A stretch of 62,842 nucleotides of DNA. Source: a virus. A program made the translations under genes and the position numbers. Location: IMG/VR virus record IMGVR_UViG_3300045988_149506. One strand, given 5' to 3'. This document shows positions 41,560 through 61,132 of the stretch, in pieces (the stretch's first letter is position 1; each line of letters starts with the position of its first letter). Under the pieces are notes generated by a model. That model made no database searches. It was not told the origin of the DNA and saw nothing but the letters and a program-made list of their open reading frames with translations.

Positions 41560-44500
41560 CTACTCCATTCCATTCAATGTTTTCAGCAGCTCCTTTCTGG
41601 TCTTGCGAATCTCCACCATTTTGGCGGCATCGTTCTGACCATCCATTTGCTTCTTGGCTTTGTTCATCTTCTTCTTGGCAGCAGAGATAGCCTTTCTAGC
41701 TGCAAACAGTCGCTTGTTGGTCTTGCTGTTCTTGAAGGCGTTAGCCTTCGCCTTATCCACATCCTTCAAACGCTGATACTCATCGTAGGTTTCCATCGTT
41801 CCGTTCCATACAGCCTGTATTCTCCAGTCCTCGGTCACATCCTCCGATTTCGCCTTCATCAAGTACTTGTTTTCAGCCTTTTCCATCTCCTTCAAGTCTT
41901 CATCACCGTTCAGATAGCCCTGCACCATGTCCAGAGCCTCCTTCTGGGTGAAAGCCTTGTACTCACTCTGCGAGAGGAATTTCTTCATCTTCTGGCGCAT
42001 CTTCTTCTTTTCGGTGATACTCTTAGCCACATCGAAGCGTTCGCTAGCCACCTGTAGAGAGGTAACACCATCTTGCATTTCAGATGTCTCCAACGCCTTC
42101 ACGCTACCGATGGCTGCTTTTATCTGCTCCTCTGGGGCAATGCCATTGCGCTCACAGCTCTGGTAGGTCATTACCACGCCTTCCATGTCACCGCTCAGGA
42201 TGAAGTCCTTGAAGTAGCTCTGAGCCTTCCAAGGAGAGAAGCCCTTTGAGGATGGGAAGAAGAAATCCACTGCCTTAAACTCCTTGTTCTCTTGGCTCGG
42301 TATCAAGAAAGGTGCCCAGTAGAGCGCATCCTTGTAGAGCAGACCGATGGTCTTGCCATACTTTCTTTGTATCTCTTGGTCGGCATGGCTGGCTTGGAAA
42401 TCGCTCAGATAGTTTATATCGTCCAAGGTCATTCTCACCATCGGGTTCGCCTTACCTATCATTCGCTGCACCATAGGGCCAGGGAACTCTAGTTCACCCT
42501 TATGGTTGAAGAGATATTCAGGCACCTCTCGGAACTGCTTACCATGTCGGATATACATTTCCGTTCCGTCCGCATATCTGCCCATAAAGATTTTGCTCTG
42601 TTGTCCTAGGCTGTTTCCTCTCATCAAGTAGTCATACCACATCATGCCATCAGGATAAGCCAGTTCGTAAGGGCTACGGTAGTTAGGGTTGGTCTTCCTC
42701 AACTCCTCAGCCTTCTTGCGTTCCTTCTCCTCGTCCAGGGCACGGAAGGCAGCATTGATGCCATTAGCAATAGCCTCATAGAACAACATGAAGCCCAAGC
42801 CGTAGCAGAGAAGCGAAGAAATCTGTCTAGCCCTTCTGCCCTCATCTTCTGGAGTAAGTTTCTTATGATAAAGCTTCTTGTAATACTCCTTGAAGTTCTC
42901 AAAGGTCGCCTCATTCCAGACAGAGCCATATCCTGTAAGAGCCAAGAAGTGGCGAGTAGTGGAGGCATTCCAGTCTGGCGAAAGAAGAACTCGTCCGGCA
43001 TAGCGCAAGGTTCGATGGCTGGCACCAAGCACATCCCAGTGCTGACCGCCAAACATATCGTTCACAAACTGACCGTCTTCATCCAAAGCCCGGCTCAGTT
43101 CCTCCTCAGTCCATCCCTTCTTCTTGGCACGCTCCTTGGTCTTGTCTGCCCTCATCCGGTAGGTAGCAAGTTTCAGTCCGTCATGAAGGAAATCCCACAA
43201 GGCTCTATCCATACCCTTGTTGATGAGCGAAAGCATCTGCGAAGCCACCTTCAAAGGCATAGTAGCCAAAGCCACCGTTCCGGAAATTCCATTTCCGTCC
43301 TTCAACTTCTCCTGCACCTTCATCATTGCATCGCGCATATTGTCGAACATGTTCTGCACATCCGCTGCTGCATAGTCGTTGGTCGCTCCAAACTTCACCA
43401 AGTGGGTTGCTGCCTCTTGGAAGTCCTGCGGATTGGCAAAGCATGGCAACTGATGATTCTTCATCGTGTCGGCAAAGATGTACTTCATAAAGTTGGCAAG
43501 AGCCTTCTTGGGTCCATACTCAACCATGTTCTGCACCATATACACCTCGGTCAGTGCTCCTGCATGGAATCCACTGAAGCCAAGCTCCAACTTCTTCATG
43601 CTCGATGCAGTTGTATCGAAGAACTTCCAGAAAGGAGTTGACTGATAGGTATCGAATACAACTCCGAATCTATCTCCTGCACTTGCCTCCGAGTAGAGCA
43701 CCTTATCCTTGCCAGTGATTGGGTTCTTCACTTTCATCTGCTTAGGCGATACATTATATACCCATACAGGACCCACACCCGGAATCTCGAAGTATTTGTA
43801 TTGCTCCAAGTTGAAAGGTGCAACCGAAGAAAGCAGTGGGTCGGAAGAAATTATCTCTCCGTCCTCGTTGCGCTCTATTACGTTCAGTCCGCTCACCTCT
43901 TGGAGCATCGTCTTGTTAGCCCAAGCCTCGATGTTGCTTCTGCTGTAGTAAGCCATCATCTTAGTGATGTCCGTGGTCTTAGGCACAAGTCCTACCTCCA
44001 AGCCTTCCATGATGGTGTTAATCTGGCGTGGCTTCTCGTTCGGGCTTTTGGTTCGCTGTCTGTTCTCCACATACATGGCATAGGCATTCTTATCAGACTT
44101 CTCCTTATCCCAAAGGTGATTTACATAGTCCACGGTGAAACCAGTGTCTGCCTTCAAGGTGTTGTTGTCCTTCAACCAGTCGAAGGTATAGTTATACCAG
44201 TCTCTGATGGAATCCAACACACTCTTCATCGGCTCGCTCAGGTTCTTGTAGTCCACACCGTAAGGAGTGATACGCTTCAAGATGATAGGCAAAACATTCT
44301 TATTCAAGATGTCCGTACCATCGATAGGCACAAATCCAGGTTCTTTCTCATGGTTGCCATTGATGATGTCAGCCATCTTGCTAGCCACCTCGGATGCGCC
44401 CTTCATATCATCGAAGACTTCTACCTCTTTTCCATCCTTCAGCTCCGTGTGCTTTTTGGCAGTCACCTCGGCAAGTTGTGGGCGAAGCTCCTGAATAGCC

Positions 44501-47500
44501 TCAACATCGTTAGGAGTGATATGGATATGTCCCTCACCAAACACACCAGTGGAGTTCAGCTTGTAGGCGATTTCTCTGATGCGTCTAGGTGCCTCTATTA
44601 TATAAGGTATAGCCTCAGCTAGCTTTTCAGCCTTGTTTGGCTTGCCTTGGTAGTCGGAAAGCAACTTGTCGAAAGCACCGCTCTCAGCCATTTTCTCGAT
44701 GCTGTTTTTCACATCATTGATATAGATGGCATCGTCTGCGCTTGCCTCCTCCATGTTCTTTCTACGATGGATAACCGCATGTTTCACTGTTCTAGCAGCT
44801 CCCTCCTTGCTCACATCGGTACTAGTTACCTCTGCCAAGTCCTGCATCACTCGCTGCTCCAAGGCATCAGCCTCCGGATTGGTCTCGGCTGGGTATATCT
44901 TCCCTTCATACAAGTCAAGGTCGGCATTGTTCTGCTCGTTCAGTTCGTGTCTAGTCAGCCAGTCCTCGTACTTCTGCCTAGCCTCATCCTGCTTCTGCTT
45001 CTCAAACGAGAACATATCAGGCATCGGGTTTTCCTTGTCTGCCATGGCATCGTTCCACTTCTCCCATTCCTTGTAACGAGGGAAAAACTCCTCATCCGTC
45101 TCGCCTTCCTTGCGTTCCGGCTTAATCGGCATTTCGTCACCCTGCAGATGATGGCTTTCACGCCATTCCTTGTTAAGACGTTCCCATTCCTTCTTGCCCT
45201 CAACATCCTTGTCGAAGTCATAGAACATTGGTGGCTCGGGGTCTTCTGTGTCCTCTCGGGCAATCTTCCACTTTTCCCACTCTCTTTTACGTTTAATATA
45301 TGCGATTTCGCCCTCGCCCTTCTTTCGATGTGGCTTGCCCTTACCTGCACCATCAGATAGCGCATCCTTGATTTCGGCATTGCTAGCCTGTGTCATCATA
45401 GCCTCCTGCTGTGTCTTCGGCATATTGTCCCAAACGTGAAGAGCCTTACCAGCCTTCATCAGGTAATATCTCAAATCCTTATCATTGAGCAAACCAGGAA
45501 CACGGATGCCCAATTTCTTAAGCATCTTGATGAGATAATGCTTTATCTTAGTCCAAAGAGAAAAGTCCTCCGCTGTAGTCGGACCCTCCTCGGCAAGATG
45601 GGCGATATACTCCTGCGTGCCGATATTGATGCGGTCAGGATTGTTCCAACCTGGATCATACTGATAAGCGAAGTCGAGAATCTTGCCCCTCGTCTTCTTA
45701 TCTACAGACTTATATACGAAGTCCGCAAACTTTCTCACGCCCTGCTCACCACCAAGCAGCACTTCCATACCCTCATGTCCTATCTTCTCATGGAAGACGG
45801 TTCTCTGAGCCTCATCGGCATCAGCACAGTTAGGAAGGTACACATGCACTGTATGAGTGCTAGGGTCATACCAACCTCTTGCACCTTGCTCCACAGCTTC
45901 TTTGTACTCATCAGGCACTTCCGAAGCATTGGTGTAAGATGTAACCTCAGCACCACCCAATACGTTAGCAACGTTCTTCACCTTATCGGCAGAATTTTTC
46001 ATCTCCTGCGATTCAAAGGTGCGGATGGATGGCATCGACAATCGCAAAGGATTCTTGTGGTTCGGTATATAGGTATGCTGAATCATGGTGTCGAAGAAGT
46101 GCAAATCTCCGTTCTCATCCTTGATTACATTCCTTGGTTCGGCATCCCACAAGTCAAACTCGCCATTCGTCCAGCCCAAATCTACCTCATCAGCACTAAT
46201 CTGAATCATATCCAGCTTAAATCCATGGTCGGTCAGATACTGAGTGATTTCCTCTCTTGTTGGAGTTGTACCCTTCAAGTATGGTTGTTCCATTACAATA
46301 CAAGGGTCTCCCTTTTGATTGTAGGCGAAACCAAGAGGAGTATATTTGTCCTCTGGCATAAACTGGTTATGGGCATTGATGCGGTCTATGAACTCATTAA
46401 TGCGGAATAAGCTATCAGTCATGGTGAAATCATTGAGTTTGATAACTTTAGTATCATCATATTTGGCATGATACACAAAGTTCTCCTCACCATGACCAAT
46501 AGAATCACCCACTATTTTTTTGAGTTCTTCGTCTGGGATGAACGAAAGATTTTTCTTAGCTGCTCGAATGACATACCCAAGTACGGGTCCTCTATCCCAA
46601 GTGCCTTGTTGTTTCTCAGCTGTTGCTGTTTGATTTCTTCGAAAGTTATCGGCTGCTGCGCCCAACGTTTCATTAACTCTTCTTTGCGCCTGTGCTCGGC
46701 TTCCAATTCTTCTGGTGATAACATCTTTATTTGGATTTTTGTTCATACTATCACCATTTTCATCAGCAACATCTGTGCCATTGTCACCAAGAGAGAACTT
46801 CAAGATGCTTCGATACCCCTTTTCTCTATGATTCTTACCATACACCTTGGAATAATGCACACCATCATTCTCACCTCCTACGATTCTGCCTCTGTTATCG
46901 GTCTCAACAAACGGCACACCTCGCTTCTCCAACTCTTTTCTCAGACTTGGAGTAACCACATTCGAAGGCATAGTGATATTCTTGCCCTTGAACATATCAT
47001 TAACAATAACATCAGCCACCTCGCTATCAGGCACAATACGCACAGGCTTATCCCAACGAGAAAGCACCACTTTGCGTTTGCCTGTCAGCTGTCCTTGGAT
47101 GATACCAGCCTTCCACTCTACTTCACCCACGGCATCCTTGGCTTTATCAGCCTTGTAGCCACTGGTTAACTCGCTCTTTGGCACCTCAACCTCTACGGTT
47201 ACGATGTTAGGGCGATTCTGAGCCTCGCTAAACTGGTCATTCAGTGGAGTGCGAGAAGTATGAAGGTAAGGATTGTAAGCAGCCTTAAGCGATTTACCAT
47301 TACCCTTGTTTAGGGTAAACATACCCTTATCATCAGCAAGTTCTGGTCGCTCATCTGCCTGTTCCCACTTACCGAGTTCGATAGGTTCCACAAACTTGCC
47401 CTTCACCTTTGCAGCCATCGGTGGATAGAGTTTTCCATCATCACCTACCTGCATGGCACGATAAACCTTCACCGTGTCTTCCTTATCCAGCTTCTTGATG

Positions 47501-50500: not shown

Positions 50501-53500
50501 TGCTCAATAAGCTCCGGATTCATGTTCTTGGCAGCAGTGCGCCACAAATGCTGATACTCATGGATAGGAGTATTAGGATTCAGATGCTCCTGATTCAGTA
50601 CAATCTCCTTGCCATCGGTATAGCCATACACCGTGCCCTTTCCCTTCGCAAACTTGTTATGGTCAACAATCTGCATATTCTCTGGCTTAAAGATAACATA
50701 GTTAGTGTCACCTTCCTCTGCACCACCAAAATTACGACCAGCCTTGTACTTGATGCCAGTGTAGCCTAAAGAAGAGAGGAATTTACTTGCAGCCTTATCG
50801 TCTTTATAGGTTGCATCATCGCTCTTCATCCTTATAGACAAAGAATCGTACAAATCTTTCCCATCAAGGAACTTGTATCTCTTATCCAACTCTGGGTCAA
50901 TAGGACGCTTACCTAGTTGCTCCAACTGTTTGTTTATTTTGTTCAGCAATCTTGCTCCAACCTTGGCATCCCAATTCAAGTAGTTCTTGCCATTATCATC
51001 AGGGATATTCACCTCATAGAGAGAAGTCTTAGGAGTTTCAACCGACAAATCTAAGTCAAGCAGTTTCTGCATTACATCAATCTGCTTTTTATAGAAATCA
51101 TTGTTATCTTCCTTGTATATCTCTTGATTTTCTTTTATGGAGTTCTTTAGCTTTTGTTTAGCCTTATCTACCCCCATTCTATCAACATTCATAAGGAAGT
51201 TGTCTGCCTTAGAAACTCCATCCATGCCAACAATATCACTAAGAGTTGCCGACATGTGCCGCCAATCCAGCTTTTCCCCATTATAGACAAAATACTTATC
51301 TTTTCTACCGCTCTCAGCATAGTATTTTCCTATTTCAGGAGAAGAGGTTACATATCCTCCCCATCCAAAGCTCTGTGTACCTTCCCCCTCTCCCATGTGG
51401 CCAAAGTCAAACTCCGTGAAGTCAGCACCGCTACCATGATAAGTACGCAAGAATCTCACTCCAGGCTGTACGATAGCCTTCAACTGTCTGTCCAAATCCT
51501 TATATTTCGCAAACAAGGAATCAAGCTTATCTTGATATTTTTCAAAGGATTTATTCCTGCAATCATTCCAAACATCATCAGGAATATCGTTTTCAGAAGC
51601 CAGTCCATGCTCATCCATGTACTCCTTCATCAACTGATTTTGATACTTCACACGTTCCTGCCCGGTTGAATTATAAGCATCCTCAGTCTCCTTAATCTGC
51701 TTTTTCAACTCATTCTTCTTACTGGTCTGTTCATCAATCTTATAAGGGTCAAACTCCGAAGGGAAAGAGCCAGTAAGCCCTGCTACATTGTCCTCAAAGC
51801 TCTTGTCGAGATTGAACACCTTGTAGTTTCCCCACATCAGCCTATTCAGGTAGGTACGTTCCTTTCTTGCCAGCTCCTGCTTCTGGTAGTACTCAGGCAT
51901 CTTATTCGGATTGCTCATATCCACCACGGCATACTGCGCCCATTTGTTTGGTCGCAACTCCTTGGCAAAGTTATAAGCATTCTCGGCAGCCTGCTTCTCC
52001 TCCGGAGTCTTGATTTTAAATCTCATCTCAGGATGATTCAGCAACATGGCAAGATTCAGATTATCCTGAGCCTCAGCCACCTTCTCCATCTCCTCGTTGC
52101 TTATCACCTTCACAGGTATTCCAGCCTTCTTAAGCATAGCAGAAACGGCATCAAAAGCCACCTTCTGCGCCTCCGTCATTTCAGATGGCTTCACCTCCTT
52201 TACATCGCGGTCAAACTTCGTCTGTTCCTTCTGTACAATGGCATAGTCAGCAAATGGCTTAGTCTTGCGGTCAGAAGCCTCTAACCACTTATCGAAGGTA
52301 GCCTTAGGCACAGCAGTAACCTTACCAAGTCCCTTCCAGTCCTTGGAATAGTTGGCAAGATAAGCCTCTGTAGCAGCCTCCTCAGAAGGATAGCCAAACA
52401 TCACCTTATGCTCGCCAAACTCACCAGTCTCTGGGTTCACCTGGTCAACAACATAAACGTTACCATCAAAAGAATCAAGGTCAGCAGCATCATTGATGAA
52501 CATATCGATATGGTCACCATCCACGCCAATCTTGCCCAAAATATAGCCATAAGTGTCGTGCATGGTCACGCTCCAAGGCTTGCCCTGCTCGTCCTTACCG
52601 CTACGTGTTGTACCCTTCGGTGTCTCTACAGTAAAGTCATAGCCACCGAAGGACAAATGTCCCTTCTTATAGTTACCTGCCTTCTTCTGAGCCTCAGAAG
52701 GGTTAGGCTCAGTCTCGGCAATGGCATTCTTTAAACGTTCTCCGAAGGATGCTTCTTGCGGTAGATGTGGAGTTCTATCAGCTGAGCCTTCGCCAGATGC
52801 CAAGCTGCTAATCTCTTGTCTCCCTTCGCCTGTGCTATTATGTAACGCTCCAGTCTCGGTCTCAGCAGATGCTTCTCTGCTACCACCTTCTTGGCGATTG
52901 CGATTTCCTTCATCAACTCCTCTCCGTGAAGAGTCGCTACCCAGGCTACTGCCTCCTCCATATCCTTCTTCATTGCTTCTGTCATCATAATCTGCTAATT
53001 CTGGTAAAATTGATTTGACATATTGTTTGTACTCTCGTTCACGATTCTCAATCTCCATCATGCGGTCATATTCCATACCAGCAATATGGTTAAGTTCGTT
53101 TTCTGACGGCAAAGGTACAGAATTATCTTCAAGATAAGCATAATAATCTGGATTTTCTGCCTGTCTTTCGATAATTTCACGCTCTTTCTGTGCCTCATAA
53201 TACTCTTCCTCGCTTGAAAGTTCCTCCTCTGCTGCAGCAATTCGGTTCATAAGTGCCACATTACGCATTTCCTTCACATTGTCGTAGGTCTTGAACATAT
53301 CCAGCAAGGTGTTTCTCACATCTTGGTCAGAATATCCCATATCCTGCAAGTTGATAGGAAGGTCATTGTACACTCTCACGGCAAAATCGTTAACAGACAT
53401 ACCAGTGCCTTTCTTGGCAATAAGATAATTGAACTTATTAGAATCATATCCCTTGCCAATACCAACCTTGAAATTACTCTTGCCCAACTCATATTGAAGA

Positions 53501-56500
53501 GATTCCGGATTCAAGCTATGAGGGTGCAAAGCTTGCGACACAGCCTCCTCCACTGTCTGAGGCGTTAAGTCCATAACATCTATAGAGGCATCCTTGTAAA
53601 TCTCTTTGATTGCTCCAAGGTCATTCTTCTTGAAGGCATCAGCCACAAGAACCTTGCGCTGCTCAGAAGGAGTCAATTCTTCCATCGCCTTGGCTCTCTC
53701 CTCCTTATTCTCTGCACTATATAGAGTATTGAGCAACTTATCCTGTGCCTTCAAATCCTTTGCCGATGCAGATAGATTAGCCTGTCTAGCCTCCAACTGA
53801 GCCATGGTAGTGTTCAATTCCTTCAACTGGTCAGCCGAATAATCAATGTCACCATTCATATATTGTTCCAGGGCTTCATTGATATTATCTATCTGTGGCT
53901 GCACCTCATCGTTCTGAATATGATAGATGCGCTTGCGCTCAGAGGCAATATAATTGCTAGCCTCATCCATGGTAGGATATTGCTTCTTCAATTCTTTATT
54001 GTCAAGCACAGCCACCTCACGCTCATCCGAAGGACTGCCAACACTATCATCTACACCAGCATTTTCGATTTCAGCCTTGCGCTCATTCTTCAAGGTTCTA
54101 GCCTCCTCTGGAGTCATAACCTCCTTGCGGATAGCATTCCAGTTCTTATAACGAGTTTCAAGGTCGGCAATCTGCTCGTTGACAAGAGCCAAGTCGTTCT
54201 CCACCTTCTGAGCCTTCTCTGGGTCCAAGTCGGCATTGAGAGATAGCCACTCCTCGTATTCAGATGCAGCCTTTCTCTTGTTATCCAACTGTTCCTTGAT
54301 GTCAGAACGGCTACCACTGATAAGATTCATCAGTTTACCATGGTCATTGCCAAATTGCTCCTGTAGATACTCAGCTGCCACCTTTGGCTCTGTGTCCTTA
54401 GAGGAATAATCAGGCTGTCCCATGCCCAAGCCTACGATACCCTTCTTATATCGCTCCTGCTTGTCAGCCTCAGCCTTGGCTGCATCATCGTTGGCACGCT
54501 GTGCGTCCTCGGCATCCAGCTCTGCACCAACAGAGGCATCGAGTGCGTTCTTTCTCCAAGCATTAAACTCGTCCTTGGTCAGAGCGATATTATCCTTGCC
54601 GTCAGAAAGCACAATCTTGCCATCCTCGCTATATCCGGCAAAGGTCATTTGCATAGGTTCTTCACCTGCTTCCATGGCAACCTCCACGGTGTCGCTAGGC
54701 TTCAACCCACTGCCATCATACTGGGCAAAGAACTGCTGCTGTCTCACATTTTTCTGCTCAGTAACTTTCTGGTCGATGAAATCATCAAGGGAAATAGGCG
54801 TACCCACTTCCTTGATGTCGGCACTAGATACCTGCTTAATCGTAGGCTGTCCCTGCTCATCAGGCACTACCACGAAACCACCACCATATTCATTGGCTTT
54901 CTTCAAGAATACCTGCTGACCAGTAGTAAGGGTAGCTGGCACGATGTTTCCGTCTTCCGTCTGATAAGGCCAAAGCTGCTGCTTCAAAGCCTCCCCATAG
55001 CCATCATCAGCATGTTGCAGAGCATCATAAACACCCTTCTTGGCATCCTGAGCCTCCACATATTTACGAACAGCATCCTGCTGCGCTGTAGTCATAGAGT
55101 TGGCACGCTGAGCCACAAACTGCTCCATGTCCTTGCCTTCCTCGTATGCCTTCACCACCACATCCATCATAGCCTCATCATCAGCAAAAGCACGCTTCAA
55201 TCGAGCTTTCGACACATCATCGTTATGGTCAATCGCTTTCAAGCCCTCAGCATCCCCATTCTGGTAGGCATTCTGTCCCATCACATAGGCATCAGACTTG
55301 CTTTCATTGGATGCAGTAGTGGCATCAGAAGGACTTGAACCGTTCTCCACCGAAGGTGTACCCTCCGCATTTGTAGGCGTTTCACCCCCAACAGGAGGCG
55401 TTGGCGGTTCAGTAGGTGGAACATCAGAAGAAACAGAAGCATCTACAGGCTTTTCCGCTGTAGCCTCAGCATTCTGAGCCGAAGCACCACCTTCCTGTGT
55501 GGCACCAGGCAGTTCACGCTGTCCCTCTATCAAGGTTTGGCTCATCTGCTCCTTGGCATCGTTCATTTCACGTTTCAGCACGATGTCGTTATAGAGCTGC
55601 TTCTGGTATTCCTCCACAAGTTTCTGTTGTTCGGCAGTGCGAGACTTGCCATCACCCTCTAGAGCCTTGCGAAGCGTACCATGCTCCACACCCTGCGAAT
55701 CCTCGAAGGTGCGAACATACTCCTTCATAATAGGGCTATTCTCGAAAGCACTATCATAGAAGTGACGATAACTGTTCACCATCTGCTGCTCCTGCTCGGT
55801 TAGTTCCATTCCGCTCTGCTGCTTCTGGATGATGTCCTTGATGGCAGCAGCATTCTGATGAAGATAGATTGCAGCCTTATCCTCATCACTCAGTTGTTCA
55901 CCTGCGGCATACTTATCCCTAGCTTGCTCATAAACAGTGTTCAGTCTGTCCTGCAAGGCATCGGTATGGTAAGCCTTTTCATACTCAGAAGTGATATTCA
56001 GCGACTTCTCGAAGTCTAGCTTCTTGTCTGCCTTCTGAGCCTCATCAAGCGAAGAATACTCCTTGCGGTCGATGATGCCACCATCCTTATTCAAGGTTTC
56101 GAGATATACCTTGCCATCATTATCCATTGGCTGCACGATGATAGAATCAATGACTGGCGAGAAGGAAGAAGGACGTTTTCCTTCCACCACAGCCATCATC
56201 TTTGCCTTCAATACCTCTGGCACACTCTTATCGTTCATCAGGTTCATGTACTTATCGGTAAGCTGCCCCATCATCTGCACACCGTCACCCTCTGCACGAA
56301 AGCCATTGATGCCCAACTTCTCGAAGGCATCACGCAAATCATCATAGCCGAATCTCTTCAACTCGGCAATATCTTGGTCGTTGAAGTCAAACTTGCGGTT
56401 AAACTCCTTGGCATCCTTGAATCGGGCATACTTGCCCACCATACCAGGCAAACCGATGGAAGTAAGGTTAGCCATGCTCTCCAAGAAGCTCTCAGCGGCA

Positions 56501-58713
56501 TCTTTGCCTGTAGGTTTGAAAGATGGGTCCTGTGCCATACGCTCCAACATCTGCTGACCTGTCATAATGCTAGAGTCCACCACCTTGCCACCTACATCTG
56601 CAAGGATATTGGTAGCCAAACCTCTGCCCTTGCCTACCATGTTGGCAATAGTACCACCTTGCATAATGGCACCTACGGCACTCTGCTTAACCACCTCGCC
56701 CAAAGTATTGGCAAGAATCTTGCCCACGGAAGGATTGTAAACCTTGCCATTCTCATCAAACTGACCTGTACGATAGATTTCATCGATAGGCTTGGAGATA
56801 GCCGATTGTCCACCGAAGGTTACTGCACCATGAGCTGCACCAGTCTTCAACGCCATTCCCTTACTCTTACCAATGAGAACCTTGGCTGCACGCTCTGCCA
56901 TCTTGGCTTCCATACCCTTAGCCATCAAGTCGCTAGCCAGTCTGCCCTCAGCCTTGGCAAGCATACTCTTGGTTACCTTGCCACCTGCGGCACCAGGAAG
57001 CCAATAACTCCAAGCATCACCTGCGAAGGTCAACGCTCCACTGCCTACACGCTCCCAGAAGCCCGGCTGATACTGTTGATTGGCAATATTCTCCAGCCAG
57101 TTCTGATAGTCGGTCTGAACCAACTTTCGTGTTATCTTGCCCACTATGGTATTACCCAAGCCTGTATTCATGATATACTCTGCACTACCCTTTGGTATCA
57201 TATTCTTCACCTCCAACTGATTGAGCTGAGCCTTCAACACTTCATCAATCATCGGCTTAAATTGCTTAGGATTTCCGCTCAGAGTTCCATTCATGCCATA
57301 TCGCTGCATCACCTTGAAGGCTGCGTTGCTCATATCGTTCAGGAACTGAGGATTCTTGTAAAGACCATTAAACTTCTTCTGCAATGTGTTGAGAGTCTTC
57401 TGAGGGTCTTTGGCTTGATTAGCCTCATACTGAGATGCAATGGCAGTACCAAGGCGAAGACTGGCAGGAATGTTCTGACTTCCTTCCATACCTTCATTAA
57501 AAGCCTTGCTTCCTGCCTCCTGTGCCTTGTTATACTCATCCACCACAGAAGGGTTTACATACTTGCTGACAACATCAGAAAGTGCCTCATTAATGTCTTG
57601 GTTCATCAGTCTGTCCTGCACATGCTCATCATGAGAATAAAGGCGTGTGGCGATGCCTTCAGCGATGTTTCGATAGTTCTGACCATACTTCTGCACAAGG
57701 CTCTCAACCATGGCTGGCTTCAAGTAGTGAGCCACATAATCATCATAGCTTACACCCATAGCCGAAGCCTCCTGCTTCAACTTATCTTGCACATCATGGC
57801 TATACCATTGAGCCTCGATATTCTTTTCGGCATCCTGTACAGTATCATCTGCCAAAGAAGAAACAACCTTGTTGGTCACTTCAAGAGCCGAACGATTAGC
57901 ATATCTGTTCAGAGCGTTCTGTGTGGCTTGTGTAGCCTCTTCAGGATTCATACCCTCGGCTTCAAGGTCTGCAACGAAGTTTTGGAAATAGTTGCCTTCC
58001 TTATCTGGTCGTTTCTTCCAATCCTCCAAATAATTAGCAAACTTTGCATCCATCAAAGTATTGTCGTTCACTACGCTAGGGATAGAAGGAGCTGGCTCCT
58101 GCCGTTGGGTAGCAGTCACCTGTTCTGTCTGCTGTACCTGCTGATTATTGTCTTGTGGTTGCTGCAATGGCTGCACTTGCTGCTCATTACCCCCAAGAAG
58201 CATACTGGTAATCATGCCACCCATTTTCTGCTCCCTACCTATATTACCTGCATCCACCTTCGGCATCATGCCGAGTGCTTGCGAAATCAAGCTAGGTTTC
58301 TTCAACTCGCCTCGCTGATACTCATCATTCAGCTGAGCCAAGTCCTTGAAGTTGCCTGGCTTGTTGTCAGGAGAATTGAAAGCATCAATCACCTCTTGTG
58401 GATATTGAGTCTGTTCAGTTCCCTGAGAAGGTGAAGAAGGAGAAGGCTTCTTGCCTACCTCATTGATAGGGGTAGCGTTTCCACTGGTATCATACCAAAT
58501 GTAACCTTGCTTACGATATTCTCCCACATCCTCGATAGGCACATCCACCTTCTGCTTCTTATCATCAAACATGGTAATATAGCCACCCTCGAAGTCCTTG
58601 GCGAAGTTATCCATGCCTCGCTGCTGAACAACCTCGTCTGGGATGTCATACTCGTTGTTGTCCTTATCCCATACATGATAAGTCAACTTAGATTTGTTGT
58701 CTTTGTCTGCCAT
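41560..58713 (-). CDS. Giant (5,717 aa) multidomain polyvalent protein, a putative virion-delivered effector or ejection protein
   Basis: A single uninterrupted ORF of 17,154 nt. Multiple enzyme-like modules are visible by motif and listed as sub-features below. It is co-oriented with two Ala/Gln/Gly-rich proteins downstream of the promoter at 60571-60618. Confidence 0.85.
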   Translation of the reverse strand: MADKDNKSKLTYHVWDKDNNEYDIPDEVVQQRGMDNFAKDFEGGYITMFDDKKQKVDVPIEDVGEYRKQGYIWYDTSGNATPINEVGKKPSPSSPSQGTEQTQYPQEVIDAFNSPDNKPGNFKDLAQLNDEYQRGELKKPSLISQALGMMPKVDAGNIGREQKMGGMITSMLLGGNEQQVQPLQQPQDNNQQVQQTEQVTATQRQEPAPSIPSVVNDNTLMDAKFANYLEDWKKRPDKEGNYFQNFVADLEAEGMNPEEATQATQNALNRYANRSALEVTNKVVSSLADDTVQDAEKNIEAQWYSHDVQDKLKQEASAMGVSYDDYVAHYLKPAMVESLVQKYGQNYRNIAEGIATRLYSHDEHVQDRLMNQDINEALSDVVSKYVNPSVVDEYNKAQEAGSKAFNEGMEGSQNIPASLRLGTAIASQYEANQAKDPQKTLNTLQKKFNGLYKNPQFLNDMSNAAFKVMQRYGMNGTLSGNPKQFKPMIDEVLKAQLNQLEVKNMIPKGSAEYIMNTGLGNTIVGKITRKLVQTDYQNWLENIANQQYQPGFWERVGSGALTFAGDAWSYWLPGAAGGKVTKSMLAKAEGRLASDLMAKGMEAKMAERAAKVLIGKSKGMALKTGAAHGAVTFGGQSAISKPIDEIYRTGQFDENGKVYNPSVGKILANTLGEVVKQSAVGAIMQGGTIANMVGKGRGLATNILADVGGKVVDSSIMTGQQMLERMAQDPSFKPTGKDAAESFLESMANLTSIGLPGMVGKYARFKDAKEFNRKFDFNDQDIAELKRFGYDDLRDAFEKLGINGFRAEGDGVQMMGQLTDKYMNLMNDKSVPEVLKAKMMAVVEGKRPSSFSPVIDSIIVQPMDNDGKVYLETLNKDGGIIDRKEYSSLDEAQKADKKLDFEKSLNITSEYEKAYHTDALQDRLNTVYEQARDKYAAGEQLSDEDKAAIYLHQNAAAIKDIIQKQQSGMELTEQEQQMVNSYRHFYDSAFENSPIMKEYVRTFEDSQGVEHGTLRKALEGDGKSRTAEQQKLVEEYQKQLYNDIVLKREMNDAKEQMSQTLIEGQRELPGATQEGGASAQNAEATAEKPVDASVSSDVPPTEPPTPPVGGETPTNAEGTPSVENGSSPSDATTASNESKSDAYVMGQNAYQNGDAEGLKAIDHNDDVSKARLKRAFADDEAMMDVVVKAYEEGKDMEQFVAQRANSMTTAQQDAVRKYVEAQDAKKGVYDALQHADDGYGEALKQQLWPYQTEDGNIVPATLTTGQQVFLKKANEYGGGFVVVPDEQGQPTIKQVSSADIKEVGTPISLDDFIDQKVTEQKNVRQQQFFAQYDGSGLKPSDTVEVAMEAGEEPMQMTFAGYSEDGKIVLSDGKDNIALTKDEFNAWRKNALDASVGAELDAEDAQRANDDAAKAEADKQERYKKGIVGLGMGQPDYSSKDTEPKVAAEYLQEQFGNDHGKLMNLISGSRSDIKEQLDNKRKAASEYEEWLSLNADLDPEKAQKVENDLALVNEQIADLETRYKNWNAIRKEVMTPEEARTLKNERKAEIENAGVDDSVGSPSDEREVAVLDNKELKKQYPTMDEASNYIASERKRIYHIQNDEVQPQIDNINEALEQYMNGDIDYSADQLKELNTTMAQLEARQANLSASAKDLKAQDKLLNTLYSAENKEERAKAMEELTPSEQRKVLVADAFKKNDLGAIKEIYKDASIDVMDLTPQTVEEAVSQALHPHSLNPESLQYELGKSNFKVGIGKGYDSNKFNYLIAKKGTGMSVNDFAVRVYNDLPINLQDMGYSDQDVRNTLLDMFKTYDNVKEMRNVALMNRIAAAEEELSSEEEYYEAQKEREIIERQAENPDYYAYLEDNSVPLPSENELNHIAGMEYDRMMEIENREREYKQYVKSILPELADYDDRSNEEGYGGGSSLGSDSSRRGVDEGNRNRQEGGSREASAETETGALHNSTGEGRQEISSLASGEGSADRTPHLPQEASFGERLKNAIAETEPNPSEAQKKAGNYKKGHLSFGGYDFTVETPKGTTRSGKDEQGKPWSVTMHDTYGYILGKIGVDGDHIDMFINDAADLDSFDGNVYVVDQVNPETGEFGEHKVMFGYPSEEAATEAYLANYSKDWKGLGKVTAVPKATFDKWLEASDRKTKPFADYAIVQKEQTKFDRDVKEVKPSEMTEAQKVAFDAVSAMLKKAGIPVKVISNEEMEKVAEAQDNLNLAMLLNHPEMRFKIKTPEEKQAAENAYNFAKELRPNKWAQYAVVDMSNPNKMPEYYQKQELARKERTYLNRLMWGNYKVFNLDKSFEDNVAGLTGSFPSEFDPYKIDEQTSKKNELKKQIKETEDAYNSTGQERVKYQNQLMKEYMDEHGLASENDIPDDVWNDCRNKSFEKYQDKLDSLFAKYKDLDRQLKAIVQPGVRFLRTYHGSGADFTEFDFGHMGEGEGTQSFGWGGYVTSSPEIGKYYAESGRKDKYFVYNGEKLDWRHMSATLSDIVGMDGVSKADNFLMNVDRMGVDKAKQKLKNSIKENQEIYKEDNNDFYKKQIDVMQKLLDLDLSVETPKTSLYEVNIPDDNGKNYLNWDAKVGARLLNKINKQLEQLGKRPIDPELDKRYKFLDGKDLYDSLSIRMKSDDATYKDDKAASKFLSSLGYTGIKYKAGRNFGGAEEGDTNYVIFKPENMQIVDHNKFAKGKGTVYGYTDGKEIVLNQEHLNPNTPIHEYQHLWRTAAKNMNPELIEHGDKLIMQTQLFADLKEDPNYKHLSDEQICDEAFARLTGEDGAAILEQMANDAIKENPLDTAKELTIINRLKDWLKKFWYWTLDTFTKWKPEDIKKMTLEDIRNLVLRDLAQGVDPRNVKSRLTKDDAISLRQQMEDNAEQERVLEHTEENWLKEFGKDGRVSTPIGSIKLGENQYKKAGREDRIKRFGLLKPTLERPDVILEKSAPKEGAERQTKYLFIKSFKKADGTKILNYESITVKQGEDEVAISAHQIEPSKVVKELTESKVLWNRFRGDSNSLGENQGSALTPSANNPSGKDSVLNPHSDAKIRNSFEITKENGGNLSVEDKIKAVSQQFGVDEADVAMYANAVKKGSTAEAARARANIKRHLMQVNEGNIFSFKDVVKYTKPINEALKVNFGDLDAMIEERRKQVEAERNAMEAARKRAEEEEAKRKKHLEELSLIPEDKLDKQYMDALSKGDDATAREMLDEAARRKGYDDTESAYQGVGAWAAPGNPGYESDKARRDDWESSGSDVNLEDMALGYTPQPDDYFSHPERYSQNTPHGLESVKAINTAIDAIKNGEKDVKVKVYRAVPTSVKEGKLRNGDWVTPSKKYAEMHGTNRLEGKYRIIEDEVPATQLWWDGNDANEFGFDDGKEYKYKNAKNNRKLNDLVTYDDEGDVIPPSKRFNSRKSDIRFMFAGEKGAAEADKADEQTIRMDNLDVAKQMEEEKKDAKVIKMATGWEKGVDGKWRYEMPDAKIKDTIDVGGGNIVKRFEEDMLWTDGKLEDAVDAPKLFEAYPQLKNIKIHTDAVMNDMPSNGEYNPQTKTITIHADELKYLNSILNHEIQHVIQREEGFAHGGTPEQVERDFNAAKVEWKARSYAFELEEKAKEMGGEYNQSAVEKALIQEYKDMDMPEFIPDKETRIKGFNYFARGYADRSMDDAIKRFRLDRFQRTDFDSYQEYRKLAGEVEARNVEKRLGMTDEERRNSLASETEDVNRDEQIVMNGSDASYSIVKDPETIKKLDKEDTVKVYRAMQVGDDGKLYPPMAAKVKGKFVEPIELGKWEQADERPELADDKGMFTLNKGNGKSLKAAYNPYLHTSRTPLNDQFSEAQNRPNIVTVEVEVPKSELTSGYKADKAKDAVGEVEWKAGIIQGQLTGKRKVVLSRWDKPVRIVPDSEVADVIVNDMFKGKNITMPSNVVTPSLRKELEKRGVPFVETDNRGRIVGGENDGVHYSKVYGKNHREKGYRSILKFSLGDNGTDVADENGDSMNKNPNKDVITRRIGSRAQAQRRVNETLGAAADNFRRNQTATAEKQQGTWDRGPVLGYVIRAAKKNLSFIPDEELKKIVGDSIGHGEENFVYHAKYDDTKVIKLNDFTMTDSLFRINEFIDRINAHNQFMPEDKYTPLGFAYNQKGDPCIVMEQPYLKGTTPTREEITQYLTDHGFKLDMIQISADEVDLGWTNGEFDLWDAEPRNVIKDENGDLHFFDTMIQHTYIPNHKNPLRLSMPSIRTFESQEMKNSADKVKNVANVLGGAEVTSYTNASEVPDEYKEAVEQGARGWYDPSTHTVHVYLPNCADADEAQRTVFHEKIGHEGMEVLLGGEQGVRKFADFVYKSVDKKTRGKILDFAYQYDPGWNNPDRINIGTQEYIAHLAEEGPTTAEDFSLWTKIKHYLIKMLKKLGIRVPGLLNDKDLRYYLMKAGKALHVWDNMPKTQQEAMMTQASNAEIKDALSDGAGKGKPHRKKGEGEIAYIKRKREWEKWKIAREDTEDPEPPMFYDFDKDVEGKKEWERLNKEWRESHHLQGDEMPIKPERKEGETDEEFFPRYKEWEKWNDAMADKENPMPDMFSFEKQKQDEARQKYEDWLTRHELNEQNNADLDLYEGKIYPAETNPEADALEQRVMQDLAEVTSTDVSKEGAARTVKHAVIHRRKNMEEASADDAIYINDVKNSIEKMAESGAFDKLLSDYQGKPNKAEKLAEAIPYIIEAPRRIREIAYKLNSTGVFGEGHIHITPNDVEAIQELRPQLAEVTAKKHTELKDGKEVEVFDDMKGASEVASKMADIINGNHEKEPGFVPIDGTDILNKNVLPIILKRITPYGVDYKNLSEPMKSVLDSIRDWYNYTFDWLKDNNTLKADTGFTVDYVNHLWDKEKSDKNAYAMYVENRQRTKSPNEKPRQINTIMEGLEVGLVPKTTDITKMMAYYSRSNIEAWANKTMLQEVSGLNVIERNEDGEIISSDPLLSSVAPFNLEQYKYFEIPGVGPVWVYNVSPKQMKVKNPITGKDKVLYSEASAGDRFGVVFDTYQSTPFWKFFDTTASSMKKLELGFSGFHAGALTEVYMVQNMVEYGPKKALANFMKYIFADTMKNHQLPCFANPQDFQEAATHLVKFGATNDYAAADVQNMFDNMRDAMMKVQEKLKDGNGISGTVALATMPLKVASQMLSLINKGMDRALWDFLHDGLKLATYRMRADKTKERAKKKGWTEEELSRALDEDGQFVNDMFGGQHWDVLGASHRTLRYAGRVLLSPDWNASTTRHFLALTGYGSVWNEATFENFKEYYKKLYHKKLTPEDEGRRARQISSLLCYGLGFMLFYEAIANGINAAFRALDEEKERKKAEELRKTNPNYRSPYELAYPDGMMWYDYLMRGNSLGQQSKIFMGRYADGTEMYIRHGKQFREVPEYLFNHKGELEFPGPMVQRMIGKANPMVRMTLDDINYLSDFQASHADQEIQRKYGKTIGLLYKDALYWAPFLIPSQENKEFKAVDFFFPSSKGFSPWKAQSYFKDFILSGDMEGVVMTYQSCERNGIAPEEQIKAAIGSVKALETSEMQDGVTSLQVASERFDVAKSITEKKKMRQKMKKFLSQSEYKAFTQKEALDMVQGYLNGDEDLKEMEKAENKYLMKAKSEDVTEDWRIQAVWNGTMETYDEYQRLKDVDKAKANAFKNSKTNKRLFAARKAISAAKKKMNKAKKQMDGQNDAAKMVEIRKTRKELLKTLNGME
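45436..45960 (-). other. Giant protein: HExxGH module (LPD1-like). Coordinates approximate.
   Basis: GWYDPSTHTVHVYLPNCADADEAQRTVFHEKIGHEGMEVLLGG. Confidence 0.35.
46070..46500 (-). other. Giant protein: protein-kinase-like module. Coordinates approximate.
   Basis: Gly-rich loop GHGEENFVY, Lys in TKVIKL, catalytic-loop-like LWDAEPRNVIKD and DFG-like HFFDTMI. Confidence 0.45.
47030..47480 (-). other. Giant protein: YPPM...YNPYLH...LNDQF module of unknown function. Coordinates approximate.
   Basis: VKVYRAMQVGDDGKLYPPMAAKV...LKAAYNPYLHTSRTPLNDQFSEAQNRPNIVTVEVEVPKSELTSGYKADKAKDAVGEVEWKAG. Confidence 0.3.
47624..48471 (-). other. Giant protein: Zn-metallopeptidase-like module 2 (HEIQH ... GEVEAR). 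Coordinates approximate.
   Basis: LFEAYPQLKNIKIH...ITIHADELKYLNSILNHEIQHVIQREEGFAHGGT...YRKLAGEVEARNVEKR. HEIQHVIQ lies at 48007-48030. Confidence 0.5.
48590..48810 (-). other. Giant protein: conserved YRAVP...GDWVT...YA module of unknown function. Coordinates approximate.
   Basis: VKVKVYRAVPTSVKEGKLRNGDWVTPSKKYAEMHG...LWWDGNDANEFGF. Confidence 0.3.
49700..50030 (-). other. Giant protein: Barnase/EndoU/ColicinE5-RelE-like (phage BECR-type) RNase-like module. Coordinates approximate.
   Basis: VSTPIGSIKLGENQYKKAGREDRIKRFGLLKPTLERPDVILEK...YLFIKSFKKADGTKILNYESITVKQGEDEVAISAHQ. Confidence 0.35.
50200..50650 (-). other. Giant protein: Zn-metallopeptidase-like module 1 (HEYQH). Coordinates approximate.
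   Basis: GTVYGYTDGKEIVLNQEHLNPNTPIHEYQHLW. The HExxH motif lies at about 50548-50562. Confidence 0.5.
50660..51460 (-). other. Giant protein: ADP-ribosyltransferase-like (ART-PolyVal-type) module. Coordinates approximate.
   Basis: VRFLRTYHGSGADFTEFDFGHMGEGEGTQSFGWGGYVTSSPEIGKYYA ... SLYEVNIPD ... GYTGIKYKAG...NYVIFKPENMQIV. Confidence 0.45.
52276..52700 (-). other. Giant protein: inorganic-pyrophosphatase-like module. Coordinates approximate.
   Basis: AGNYKKGHLSFGGYDFTVETPKGTTRSGKD...YGYILGKIGVDGDHIDMFI resembles the family-I PPase D-x-D-x-x-D signature region. Confidence 0.4.
56540..57070 (-). other. Giant protein: Gly-rich hydrophobic segments (possible membrane-interacting region). Coordinates approximate.
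   Basis: PGFWERVGSGALTFAGDAWSYWLPGAAGGK ... GAAHGAVTFGGQSAI ... GAIMQGGTIANMVGKGRGLATNILADVGGKVV. Confidence 0.35.
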
Positions 58714-58721
58714 ATATTATG

Positions 58722-60023
58722 TTATTTTCTTATATACTTTGAATAATCTACCTTTGTGCTCGAAGTTCCCTTGGCTGGTTTTCCACCATAAGGGCGAACG
58801 GTTCGTTTCTTTCCCTCCTTAGCCATCTTAGCCCTAGCGTAAGCGGATGCCTGTTGTCGGTTATACTTGTTTGCCCAAGTTCCACCTCTTCCATCAGTAT
58901 TGCCACCGATATTCATACCATTGTGTGTAGCCCATTCATTCACATGCTTCTTGAAAACAGGGTCGTTCACATAGTTGGTATTGAAATCGTCCGCTTCCTT
59001 ATCGGCTTGGTTGCCACGGTTTGCCTTCTCGGTCTCAGCCCCAATCTTGACAACTTGGGCTTTCTTCACAGCCACACCTGCTGCATGGTCAGCTGCTCCT
59101 GCATTGGCATTATTTGCTTGGGCGGTAAGCAAGTTACTCTTCTTTCCTCTCAGTTCGTCTTCCGTCTTGGTCTTGGCGGTAGAAAGACCAGCTGCTGCAT
59201 TAGAAGCTGCTTGTCTTGCCTGTTCGGTCTTCACCTTTTCAGGTGTCAAAGCATCCTCCTGTGCCTTCTGCGAACCACGATAAGCAGCAAGGGCATCATT
59301 AGCCTTGGCTGCTGCCTCTGCTTGCATCTGAGCTTGCTTATTGGCTCTATCTTTCCAAATATTCGCCATCATCTGGTCATAGCCTTTCTGTCGAAGGGCA
59401 TCAGTGCCTTCCCTTAGCTTGCGTTGGCGTTCTGTCAATGCCTGGGCTGATTCCACCTTCTGCTCAGGAGCACCGATAGCTGTGCCGAAGAAGTTGCCGA
59501 TATGCTGGAAAAGGTTGCCTAACTGTTCCCACTTTGCTTGTCTCTCGGCTTTCTTCTGCAAAACAGCATTGGCTGCTACCGTCCTATCCACATCACCAAG
59601 AGATTGAAGCCAAGGCATAAAAGAAGCCCAATCGCCATTGCCATTCTTCTCGAAGTCCCTCATGATGTCATAAGGTTTCATCTGCTGCAAGAGAGGGTTC
59701 TGCTCTATATCGGCATAAGGTTTGCTCCAATCAATAGAAATGCCTTGATTTGGAGTAACCTTGGTTACATCATCAGTTGGCTGTTGTGTGAAGGATGGTT
59801 GATTACCTTCTACCAATCCATTTGTATCTATTGGAGCTGTCGTAGTTGTTGATGTAGCTTGCGCTGCCATACTATCCCCACCAGATGGTGTTGGTGTCTG
59901 CACAGTGAAAGAAACTGGCTCTGATGGTGCTGACTGCCCATCATCATTGGATGGAAAATCGGTTACAGGTGTCACAGCCGTAGCTGGACGCTTTGGAGTT
60001 AAATCGTCACTCATAAATCCCAT
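58722..60023 (-). CDS. Ala/Gln/Lys-rich hypothetical protein (candidate internal virion or ejection protein)
   Basis: 433 aa with low-complexity helical composition, immediately upstream of the giant gene. Confidence 0.5.
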   Translation of the reverse strand: MGFMSDDLTPKRPATAVTPVTDFPSNDDGQSAPSEPVSFTVQTPTPSGGDSMAAQATSTTTTAPIDTNGLVEGNQPSFTQQPTDDVTKVTPNQGISIDWSKPYADIEQNPLLQQMKPYDIMRDFEKNGNGDWASFMPWLQSLGDVDRTVAANAVLQKKAERQAKWEQLGNLFQHIGNFFGTAIGAPEQKVESAQALTERQRKLREGTDALRQKGYDQMMANIWKDRANKQAQMQAEAAAKANDALAAYRGSQKAQEDALTPEKVKTEQARQAASNAAAGLSTAKTKTEDELRGKKSNLLTAQANNANAGAADHAAGVAVKKAQVVKIGAETEKANRGNQADKEADDFNTNYVNDPVFKKHVNEWATHNGMNIGGNTDGRGGTWANKYNRQQASAYARAKMAKEGKKRTVRPYGGKPAKGTSSTKVDYSKYIRK

Positions 60024-60570: not shown

Positions 60571-60652
60571 CTAAAGTAATGCGTTTTTCTCGCCTATCTG
60601 TGATAAGTTGCGCAACTTGAACAACAAGTTTCGTTATTTTTCACTATATTTG
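60571..60652. promoter_or_regulatory. Bidirectional phage-specific promoter centred on the perfect palindrome AAGTTGCGCAACTT
   Basis: Palindrome at 60605-60618. The minus -7 box TACTTTAG is the reverse complement of 60571-60578, and the plus -7 box TATATTTG is at 60645-60652. Both gaps are 26 nt. Confidence 0.65.
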
Positions 60653-61076: not shown

Positions 61077-61087
61077 ATACGAAAAAA

Positions 61088-61132
61088 GGGTAGCCCTCTC
61101 TAAAATTTCTACTACTTTAGAGAAGACTACCC
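61088..61132. terminator. Long imperfect hairpin between convergent genes
   Basis: GGGTAGCCCTCTCTAAA...TTTAGAGAAGACTACCC. Confidence 0.55.

Follow-up and report, generated by a model that had tools for sequence, protein, structure and literature searches.

What does a phage do with a single gene that takes up more than a quarter of its genome? The question is raised by the IMG/VR virus record IMGVR_UViG_3300045988_149506, here called the window (the whole stretch of DNA analysed, 62,842 nucleotides). The first 99 bases of the window (1-99) recur as an exact copy at its end (62744-62842), and because such a terminal repeat is the typical assembler overlap of a circular contig, we take the record to be a complete circular genome of 62,743 bp. 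One open reading frame (ORF) on the minus strand, at 41560..58713, fills 17,154 of the 62,842 nucleotides (27.3%). It begins with ATG, runs for 5,717 codons and, as judged from the ORF list and the translation, meets its sole stop at the end; the product would be a chain of 5,717 amino acids (aa), 647 kDa and pI 5.2. An earlier note, written from the letters alone, had described one minus-strand frame of this length, put its share at about 27% of the genome and assigned the product to the polyvalent proteins. The frame lies exactly where it was drawn, every motif quoted is found at the expected place in the translation, and the class assignment is supported by the domain set, the structural-gene context and the mosaicism of the gene. 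Building on observed domain content, chassis and cassette layout, selection, structural-module context, temperate lifestyle and host, we consider it probable that the gene encodes a giant phage-type polyvalent protein of a podovirus-like temperate phage, a protein that is packaged, ejected into the host, cleaved by its own activity and directed against host defence.

An open frame of 17 kb at about 46% GC cannot have arisen by chance. A scan of IMG/VR anchored on aa 1990-2337 found 164 relatives, and nearly all of the 80 loci fetched carry a single unbroken frame of 4,700-5,900 codons. The comparisons that follow use the 57 relatives whose ORF lies wholly inside the fetched locus, 49 of which extend to the conserved C-terminal end. 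Against these 57, the ratio of nonsynonymous to synonymous changes (pN/pS, Nei-Gojobori method) is 0.27 over the whole gene and 0.05-0.2 in the recognisable domains, and it comes near 1 only in a Gly/Ser/Glu-rich linker at aa ~1900-2000. The giant gene is under purifying selection almost throughout.

The homologues on record give a different impression, since the protein collection searched holds only pieces of 1,300-2,300 aa. That collection returned nothing longer than ~2,300 aa, and the fragment lengths are therefore a sampling effect. Unlike it, the library of representatives at 50% identity contains family members of up to 7,483 aa, and an exhaustive search of cluster representatives yielded near-full-length counterparts of 5,707 and 5,605 aa. 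Catalogues without very long proteins, together with gene callers that meet frameshifts, thus conceal giant genes, and fragment-only entries can make a long ORF look, wrongly, like a fusion. In three of the fetched contigs the giant-gene slot holds two gene calls: one contig has 10 N in a row, another has a 2-bp deletion at GGGAAACCC, and in the third the frame shifts immediately ahead of the HExxxH motif. Two genuinely separate genes were considered for these relatives and rejected, as DNA alignment of the junctions gave continuous homology across each split. The possibility of an assembly chimera, raised in the earlier note, thereby falls away: related genomes have an intact single ORF, and the splits are a scaffold gap or frameshifts. 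Split sites lie at 9990-10040 of locus L002 (~aa 3229 of the giant protein) and at ~9950-10001 of locus L004, and the downstream product of the 2-bp-deletion split (P0011) is on record on 11 contigs. In the split lineages, either a two-piece protein works, or the gene is decaying, or frameshifting restores the frame. Among GenBank phages, neither megablast of the giant gene nor tblastn of its C-terminal 1,318 aa found a match, and in a tblastn of aa 200-2400 the InPase block was the sole part that matched.

Pfam places three domains above and two below its cut-offs in the giant protein, beside which at least five further conserved modules can be recognised; the profile searches thus do recover families that the earlier note proposed. 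The strongest match is to InPase (PF18823; aa 2007-2145; 52279..52695, minus strand, as are all parts of the protein cited below), with E=4.8e-50, at the block first described as pyrophosphatase-like; it is present in 57/57 relatives. When both halves of the giant protein were compared with PDB sequences by phmmer, the sole match joined this block to residues 637-763 of the portal protein of phage Pa193 (9b41_L), whose authors saw no density for residues 529-765, the C-terminal InPase appendage included. At aa 2100 (codon 52414-52416) the window encodes Gly (GEFGEHK) vs Asp (FDEHK) in 29/30 diverse homologues and 55/57 close relatives. To judge from its conservation, this D2100G change, private to the present genome, may inactivate the InPase or may reflect a variant or an error in the sequence. 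The block read as a protein kinase is Kinase-PolyVal, of Ser/Thr/Tyr type (PF18762; aa 4051-4212; 46078..46563; E=1e-17; 12/57 relatives), in which K4092, D4190, N4195 and D4208 are conserved in at least 90% of 7 non-redundant homologues; the alignment is shallow and the region is poorly modelled by AlphaFold2 (AF2). The third domain above cut-off is LPD23 (PF18838; aa 3415-3477; 48283..48471; E=2.4e-11; 26/57 relatives).

The two matches below cut-off are backed by homologues. For the RNase-like block attributed to the BECR/RelE group, PBECR2 (PF18810) falls just short on aa 2889-2992 (E~1e-5, 26.1 bits vs a cut-off of 27.1), but proteins aligned to aa 2860-3060 carry precomputed PF18810; the cassette spans aa 2861-3060 (49534..50133) and is optional, occurring in 26/57 relatives. 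The ART-like cassette (aa 2413-2686; 50656..51477; 24/57 relatives, likewise optional) scores well below threshold with ART-PolyVal (PF18760) on aa 2422-2484 (E=0.003, 18.9 bits vs 31.2) and its triad, H2426/Y2454/N2671 with an insert of ~80 aa, includes an Asn, but homologues aligned over aa 2413-2856 carry precomputed PF18760. Further modules lie between the named domains. A module at aa 3069-3442 (48388..49509) is kept in 52/57 relatives at a pN/pS of 0.05-0.08, and its residues 3262-3374 match PHROG 2579, 'ParB C-terminal domain', with E=6.6e-20. An alpha/beta module at aa 3728-3960 (46834..47532; 38/57 relatives), which AF2 models at a predicted local distance difference test score (pLDDT) of 60-94, has many conserved polar residues and matches no Pfam or PHROG family. 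The long acidic or coiled-coil linkers described earlier are real as charged linkers at aa 3127-3213 and 4453-4556.

Three blocks carry HExxH-type motifs and resemble zincins. Block A (HEYQH plus E2769; aa 2687-2860; 50134..50655) and block C (HEKIGH plus E4368; aa 4231-4421; 45451..46023) are present in 57/57 relatives, the former at a pN/pS of 0.10, while block B (HEIQH...GEVEAR; aa 3499-3727; 47533..48219) is optional, with 25/57. The motif residues are strongly kept: H2718/E2719/H2722 in 43/43 and H4308/E4309/H4313 in 35/35 non-redundant homologues of A and C, each with its distal Glu in at least 90%, and H3562/E3563/H3566 in 15-16 of 16 homologues of B, all 16 of which retain E3687 and E3689. 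Block A also occurs in ArdC_N-containing proteins. AF2 models block B as three strands, a motif-bearing helix and a later helix with the Glu, and block C, at pLDDT 80-94, as strand-helix-strand-strand-helix, the last bearing the motif, again followed by a helix with the Glu. When the blocks were aligned with one another by hhalign, B and C scored 86% over the motif helix, A and C 63%, and A and B 10%. A Foldseek search of the PDB with the whole 1,200-residue multi-domain model of aa 3400-4599 (mean pLDDT 65) returned nothing better than E=0.26, and a profile of the same residues had no match among PDB sequences. From motifs and predicted topology, the three blocks are putative peptidases, an assignment that we consider likely. 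The two metallopeptidase-like blocks of the earlier note thus keep their near-invariant motifs and distal Glu and gain no profile or fold match, and its 'HExxGH' block exists but is properly an HExxxH motif.

How these modules are distributed among relatives reveals the organisation of the protein. The 57 full-length relatives display 33 architectures, so that the module shuffling suspected from a single genome is real. The constant parts are the N-terminal ~2,000 aa, InPase, zincin-like blocks A and C and an ~890-aa C-terminal domain; we refer to these as the chassis and to the optional parts as cassettes. The slot before block C alone holds a C5 DNA methylase in 33 relatives, the kinase in 12, PBECR3 in 4, ART-PolyVal with LPD3 in 3 and MuF_C in 2, identities that were confirmed by Pfam, and LPD13 and PBECR5 fill other slots. 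All the alternatives (PF00145, PBECR3, PBECR5, MuF_C, ART-PolyVal with LPD3, LPD13) are drawn from the polyvalent vocabulary, and the same modules stand in different orders in unrelated polyvalent proteins. Identity along the gene is mosaic: one relative is 98% identical over aa 3533-3960 and 71% over the N-terminal 2,300 aa, which points to recombination within the gene. This genome has a C5 methylase as a stand-alone gene (6057-7457, plus strand; PF00145, E=1e-41), and 33/57 relatives carry a C5 methylase as a cassette inside the giant protein, in the slot held here by the kinase.

A short strand-like motif was noticed at the borders of modules, reading VRFLR, IRFMF, ASYSI and LKFSL at aa 2419, 3412, 3728 and 3971 (~46801-51458). 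The pattern [ILVMAY][RKS][FY]x[LIFVMR] occurs four times in the giant protein, each time at a module junction, and similar strings (DIRFRF, EIRFHR, VKYSL, AKYSL) begin cassettes in relatives. The motif could serve as a handle for recombination or mark a site of cleavage; the associated probability of ~0.0008 is circular and is not counted as evidence, since the pattern was defined after the examples had been seen.

The C-terminal domain (aa 4824-5717; 41563..44244), conserved and mostly alpha-helical, is the hallmark of a wider family. It is found in 49/57 relatives, and 5 of the remainder carry a divergent alternative. In these 5 (L029, L030 and L041 among them) the C-terminal ~1,170 aa, after ~aa 4546, are replaced by ~1,360 aa. 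Database proteins with the alternative C-terminus (P0040-P0042) nevertheless have the final ~150 residues (aa 5553-5714) in common with the giant protein, a hint that the terminus carries a conserved signal. An exhaustive search with aa 4600-5717 gave 529 cluster representatives at E<=1e-3, 169 of them at E<=1e-30, and the best 150 of the 529 clusters include 43 giants of 3,346-7,483 aa. In the giants listed the domain always sits at the extreme C-terminus, and about half of them also share the N-terminal chassis, an InPase at ~aa 2000 and the HExxxH region. With 164 relatives in IMG/VR, these 43 giants and two equivalents in cultured phages, the earlier remark that the size and domain combination are unusual was overstated.

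AF2 models the domain with confidence (pLDDT 84.5, predicted template modelling score 0.77) as mostly helical. Neither Foldseek nor a profile search found a significant match in the PDB (entries to April 2026), and no Pfam model hit it in any of the 43 members scanned. The model does match, in BFVD, terminal pieces of viral proteins labelled 'Large polyvalent protein associated domain-containing protein' (probability 1.00, E down to 2e-13) and a Cellulophaga phage protein. The C-terminal domain is a recurrent unnamed terminal module of phage polyvalent proteins.

At the other end, a variable leader (aa 1-200; 58114..58713) is present in only 14-60% of relatives, where alternative leaders exist, and is followed by the conserved N-terminal chassis (aa 201-1989; 52747..58113). 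By its presence profile, the stretch at aa ~200-1990 is shared by ~98-100% of the 57 relatives over most of its length and by ~75% at aa ~1800-2000, and it is detectable in about half of the distant giants. Outside a stretch shared with phrog_10089, aa 201-1989 matched no Pfam, PHROG or PDB family, and no Pfam or PHROG model matched either chassis end in distant family members or the N-termini of distant giants. Within the N-terminal chassis, a Gly/Ala-rich, moderately hydrophobic segment (aa 551-720; 56554..57063; Gly ~14%) is a candidate membrane-active region. It corresponds to the Gly-rich hydrophobic segments reported near the N-terminus, which prove to be family-wide: in 32/46 giants the most hydrophobic 200-aa window is a Gly-rich (12-18% Gly) N-terminal stretch starting before aa 1000 (equivalent segments at aa ~120-690, mostly ~330-690), even in giants without detectable N-terminal sequence similarity. 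The hydrophobic stretches reported from the C-terminal region are present but weak, amounting to two segments at KD19 1.3-1.5.

The giant gene is the third of a co-directional series. A 167-aa protein with a glycine-zipper-like hydrophobic N-terminus (60039..60542, minus strand; KD19 1.56 at the N-terminus) comes first, a 433-aa protein rich by composition in Ala/Lys/Thr/Gly/Gln (58722..60023, minus) follows, with 8 nt between it and the giant gene, and beyond the giant gene the same strand continues with a P22-like portal (38743..40800, minus; PF16510, E=2e-34; phrog_156). The giant gene and its two partners are tightly spaced. The neighbours had been correctly sketched as two upstream Ala/Gln/Gly-rich proteins and an adjoining portal; the portal lies 759 nt downstream, with a small opposite-strand ORF of 156 aa between them (40931-41401, plus), which has no family match and whose position and size (155-158 aa) are kept in relatives. 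For a late-type promoter proposed at 60571-60618, a sigma-70 scan gave no support, and nor did the pattern TTTG...TAnnTTTG of Bacteroidetes promoters. Farther upstream, just downstream of the tyrosine integrase gene (61200-62666) and upstream of the 167-aa gene, a terminator-like hairpin of 20 pairs followed by a T-run (61087-61133, minus) would separate the lysogeny unit from the giant-gene operon. Elsewhere the genome encodes a large terminase (35861-38044, on the strand opposite to the portal), an SU10-like major capsid protein (32368-33939) and a replication initiator. In line with the earlier reading, family scans of its proteins turned up neither a tape measure nor a tail tube or sheath, as would be expected of a virion with a short tail.

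Copies of the C-terminal domain that are 83-90% identical were found, in a scan of one genome per species, in metagenome-assembled genomes of Segatella copri and in strain G8 of this species, whose complete chromosome (NZ_CP146523.1, around 3.12-3.14 Mb) has a 90% identical portal beside the copy. The phage is therefore a temperate phage of S. copri. By portal sequence its closest cultured relatives are BF1-TP2, BS-TP4 and BKO1-TP3, all phages of Bacteroides, with 26-30% identity. LoVEphage was considered as a member of the same clade and rejected, being a different phage of 71 kb. Among the remaining genes, one near the left end encodes a 453-aa protein with an Mrr-type restriction endonuclease domain (1082-2443, minus; PF04471, PF13156) and may serve defence from within the prophage. 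Candidates for host recognition are two adjoining proteins encoded downstream of a fibre-like gene (25460-29330, minus), one of 922 aa with a CotH kinase-like domain and one of 360 aa with leucine-rich repeats.

Phage-type polyvalent proteins were defined by Iyer, Burroughs, Anand, de Souza and Aravind (2017, J Bacteriol, PMC5512222), who predicted that they are multi-tool kits injected against host defence, often longer than 2,000 aa and mosaic among orthologues. In the same study InPase and PBECR2 were confined to polyvalent proteins of the phage type encoded among late genes; it also proposed that a zincin-like metallopeptidase (MPTase) domain processes the chain, noted fusions of InPase to portals, described an HExxxH metallopeptidase variant in some members and traced the polyvalent kinase clade mainly to (pro)phages of Bacteroidetes and Verrucomicrobia. 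The giant protein agrees with this class in joining multiple conflict-related domains (InPase, Kinase-PolyVal, PBECR2, ART-PolyVal, LPD23) in one huge chain, in its late, structural-gene context, in its mosaic architectures and in the HExxxH variant of block C. Its phage-type membership is borne out by the portal, large terminase and SU10-like capsid genes around it, by the integrase and by the G8 prophage. It differs in exceeding the 2,000-aa benchmark, in having no N-terminal MuF, DarA-N or portal fusion, and in its fixed chassis, of which the ~890-aa C-terminal domain and the ~1,800-aa N-terminal region lie outside Pfam; we did not find these ends described in PMC5512222.

Cultured phages provide close parallels. 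BS-TP4 and BKO1-TP3 (PQ571277 and PQ571269), described in Gut Microbes in 2025 (PMC12694917) in a paper that does not discuss their giant gene, encode proteins of 5,391 aa (gp3, 'hypothetical') and 5,553 aa (gp55, 'DarB-like antirestriction'), each directly upstream of the portal. Both are temperate Bacteroidales phages with genomes of ~64 kb, and they agree with the window in gene order: an integrase gene (seen in BKO1-TP3) is followed by a small gene, a gene for ~370-390 aa, the giant gene and that of a P22-like portal, after which the terminase lies on the opposite strand. Their InPase and HExxxH block are colinear with those of the giant protein at nearly the same positions, but only two segments of ~180 aa each align, with no recognisable sequence similarity elsewhere, and portal identity is only 26%. 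The 167-aa protein is homologous to BF1-TP2 gp70 (7e-22), BKO1-TP3 gp57 (4e-18) and BS-TP4 gp1 (4e-8), and counterparts of the 433-aa protein, similar in size and position, precede the giant gene in all three phages; in BF1-TP2 the same triad ends in a giant gene of 3,633 aa. In Cellulophaga phage phiST, a protein that opens with InPase is annotated as 'virion structural protein'.

The 'DarB-like' label itself deserves a comment. DarB and DdrB of phage P1 are large head-packaged proteins that protect incoming DNA; DdrB is processed proteolytically before packaging, and Iyer et al. identified a metallopeptidase domain at its C-terminus (PMC5512222). The PHROG profile phrog_10089, 'DarB-like antirestriction', matches aa 1350-2328 of the giant protein, and the label arises because a giant profile shares the stretch around InPase. 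Pfam detected no N6-adenine methylase, SF2 helicase or LPD36 at E<=0.1, and without the LPD36-methylase-helicase triad the protein is not DarB-like in the strict sense.

A second comparison is with the virion RNA polymerase of phage N4 (gp50, 3,500 aa), whose N-terminal domain is tied to injection and membrane association, whose central part is the payload and whose helical C-terminal domain is tied to encapsidation. A full-length structure of the N4 protein was published in July 2026 and may be more recent than the PDB copy searched. The likeness lies in very large size, a short-tailed phage and a tripartite logic, packaging and injection being features of the N4 protein. The two have no detectable sequence similarity and the payload here is a variable cassette array. 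The analogy is functional only; Pfam, PHROG and PDB searches found no RNA polymerase domain in the giant protein, which is not N4-type. Because the 3,500-aa N4 polymerase is packaged and injected, a short-tailed phage is able to handle so large a protein.

Put together, the preferred course of events for the packaged and ejected polyvalent protein would be as follows. The giant protein would be expressed late from the structural operon with its two small partners, stored inside the capsid close to the portal and delivered to the cell together with the DNA, its conserved termini serving loading and exit as in the N4 polymerase. The built-in metallopeptidase-like blocks would then cut the chain into separate effectors, and within minutes of the start of infection these would weaken the defences of the host. 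The effectors might cleave RNA, phosphorylate or ADP-ribosylate proteins, or hydrolyse pyrophosphate or signalling nucleotides; in relatives with the C5 methylase cassette, cytosines of the incoming DNA might be methylated. Indirect pointers to a location in the virion come from the position of the gene, from the InPase on the Pa193 portal and from the InPase in the phiST structural protein.

Several points weigh against this proposal. Packaging, ejection and cleavage are steps that we infer for the giant protein and its close relatives alike, and to leave through a channel of ~3 nm the 647-kDa chain would need to be unfolded. Blocks A, B and C match no Pfam family (MPTase-PolyVal included) and no PDB sequence, and Foldseek with the model of aa 3400-4599 matched no solved fold. 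The InPase of this genome has Gly at a near-invariant Asp, and the ART-like block, below the Pfam cut-off, carries Asn in place of the Asp or Glu expected as its third catalytic residue. Neither the giant protein nor the distant giants checked have a MuF, DarA-N or portal fusion: Phage_Mu_F was absent from the giant protein and from the N-terminal 2,000 aa of four distant giants, and of MuF some relatives carry the MuF_C (PBECR-type) cassette alone. Finally, since some relatives have a frameshift-split gene, a single chain is not strictly required.

The explanation that comes nearest to competing holds that the protein is foremost a structural ejection device, in which the termini and the two partners form a channel through the envelope and the enzymes are secondary passengers, an analogue of T7 gp14/15/16 or P22 gp7/16/20. 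In T7, gp14, gp15 and gp16 are encoded by consecutive genes of increasing size, and their products sit on the portal until they are ejected and span the envelope; gp16 also has an enzymatic domain. The present triad also consists of three consecutive genes of increasing size beside the portal, kept across deep divergence and beginning with a glycine-zipper-like protein, though the sizes differ about four-fold from those of T7. The phage is podovirus-like and the family scans found no other candidates for ejection proteins; the Gly-rich hydrophobic N-terminal segment is family-wide, and conservation is highest at the termini, whereas the centre varies and can be dispensed with. Yet no PHROG links the protein to the T7 core, Foldseek matched neither aa 3400-4599 (the T7 core entry 9jyy_G came up only at E=0.32) nor aa 4824-5717 significantly to ejection proteins of known structure, those of the T7 core included, and classical transmembrane helices would call for stronger hydrophobic segments. 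Moreover, InPase and two of the zincin-like blocks vary as little as the termini do, and the enzymes are therefore part of the core. We consider this explanation unlikely, and it overlaps with the preferred reading more than it competes with it.

Less probable still is that the protein is never packaged and acts in the producing or lysogenic cell, either as a late polyprotein that releases enzymes or as a prophage weapon or defence against competing elements. No known capsid-targeting domain was detected, the gene lies ~1.2 kb downstream of the integrase gene near the lysogeny end, and split versions persist in some lineages. Against these stand the co-directional, tightly spaced partner genes with the portal gene next, the terminator-like hairpin between the giant-gene operon and the integrase gene, the reported restriction of InPase and PBECR2 to phage-type polyvalent proteins in late-gene contexts (PMC5512222) and the physical attachment of an InPase to the Pa193 portal. 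That the single ORF arose artificially, whether through chimeric assembly, from a run of fused genes or by decay into a pseudogene, as database fragments of 1,300-2,300 aa and two-gene calls in three fetched relatives might suggest, is already refuted by the ~2,300-aa limit of what the protein collection returned, the causes of the splits, each within continuous homology, the single ORF of 4,700-5,900 aa in most IMG/VR relatives and the representatives of 5,605 and 5,707 aa, the pN/pS of 0.27 and the deposited cultured-phage equivalents of 5,391 and 5,553 aa.

Much of what the giant protein is made of was already described in PMC5512222: the class, its domain vocabulary, the HExxxH variant, the Bacteroidetes kinase clade and the mosaicism of orthologues. 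In the literature searched we did not find a description of a fixed chassis with two large ends outside Pfam, of a family on this scale (529 clusters, proteins of up to 7,483 aa) or of population-level cassette polymorphism in S. copri phages, nor any experimental follow-up on the packaging, processing or targets of polyvalent proteins. The system is tractable and unusually suited to testing the long-standing predictions about these proteins. S. copri is a major species of the human gut, an integrated copy lies in the complete genome of the cultured strain G8, and distantly related cultured Bacteroides phages carry positional equivalents. The 33 natural combinations of cassettes on one chassis are a ready-made swap experiment that could link cassettes to the defence systems of the host, and the C-terminal domain is probably central to the loading or delivery of such proteins.

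A further step can be offered tentatively, as a possibility that we rate below even odds by some distance: the conserved ends and the two small partners may form a delivery vehicle that has so far gone undescribed and is shared by hundreds of phage lineages, in which the termini would load the protein and cross the envelope for short-tailed phages without known ejection proteins, the middle would serve as a plug-in bay, and the cassettes, opening at the junction motifs, would be freed by the three metallopeptidases. If this is true, the giant gene would be both ejectosome and anti-defence arsenal, evolving by exchange of cassettes in the manner of polymorphic toxins.

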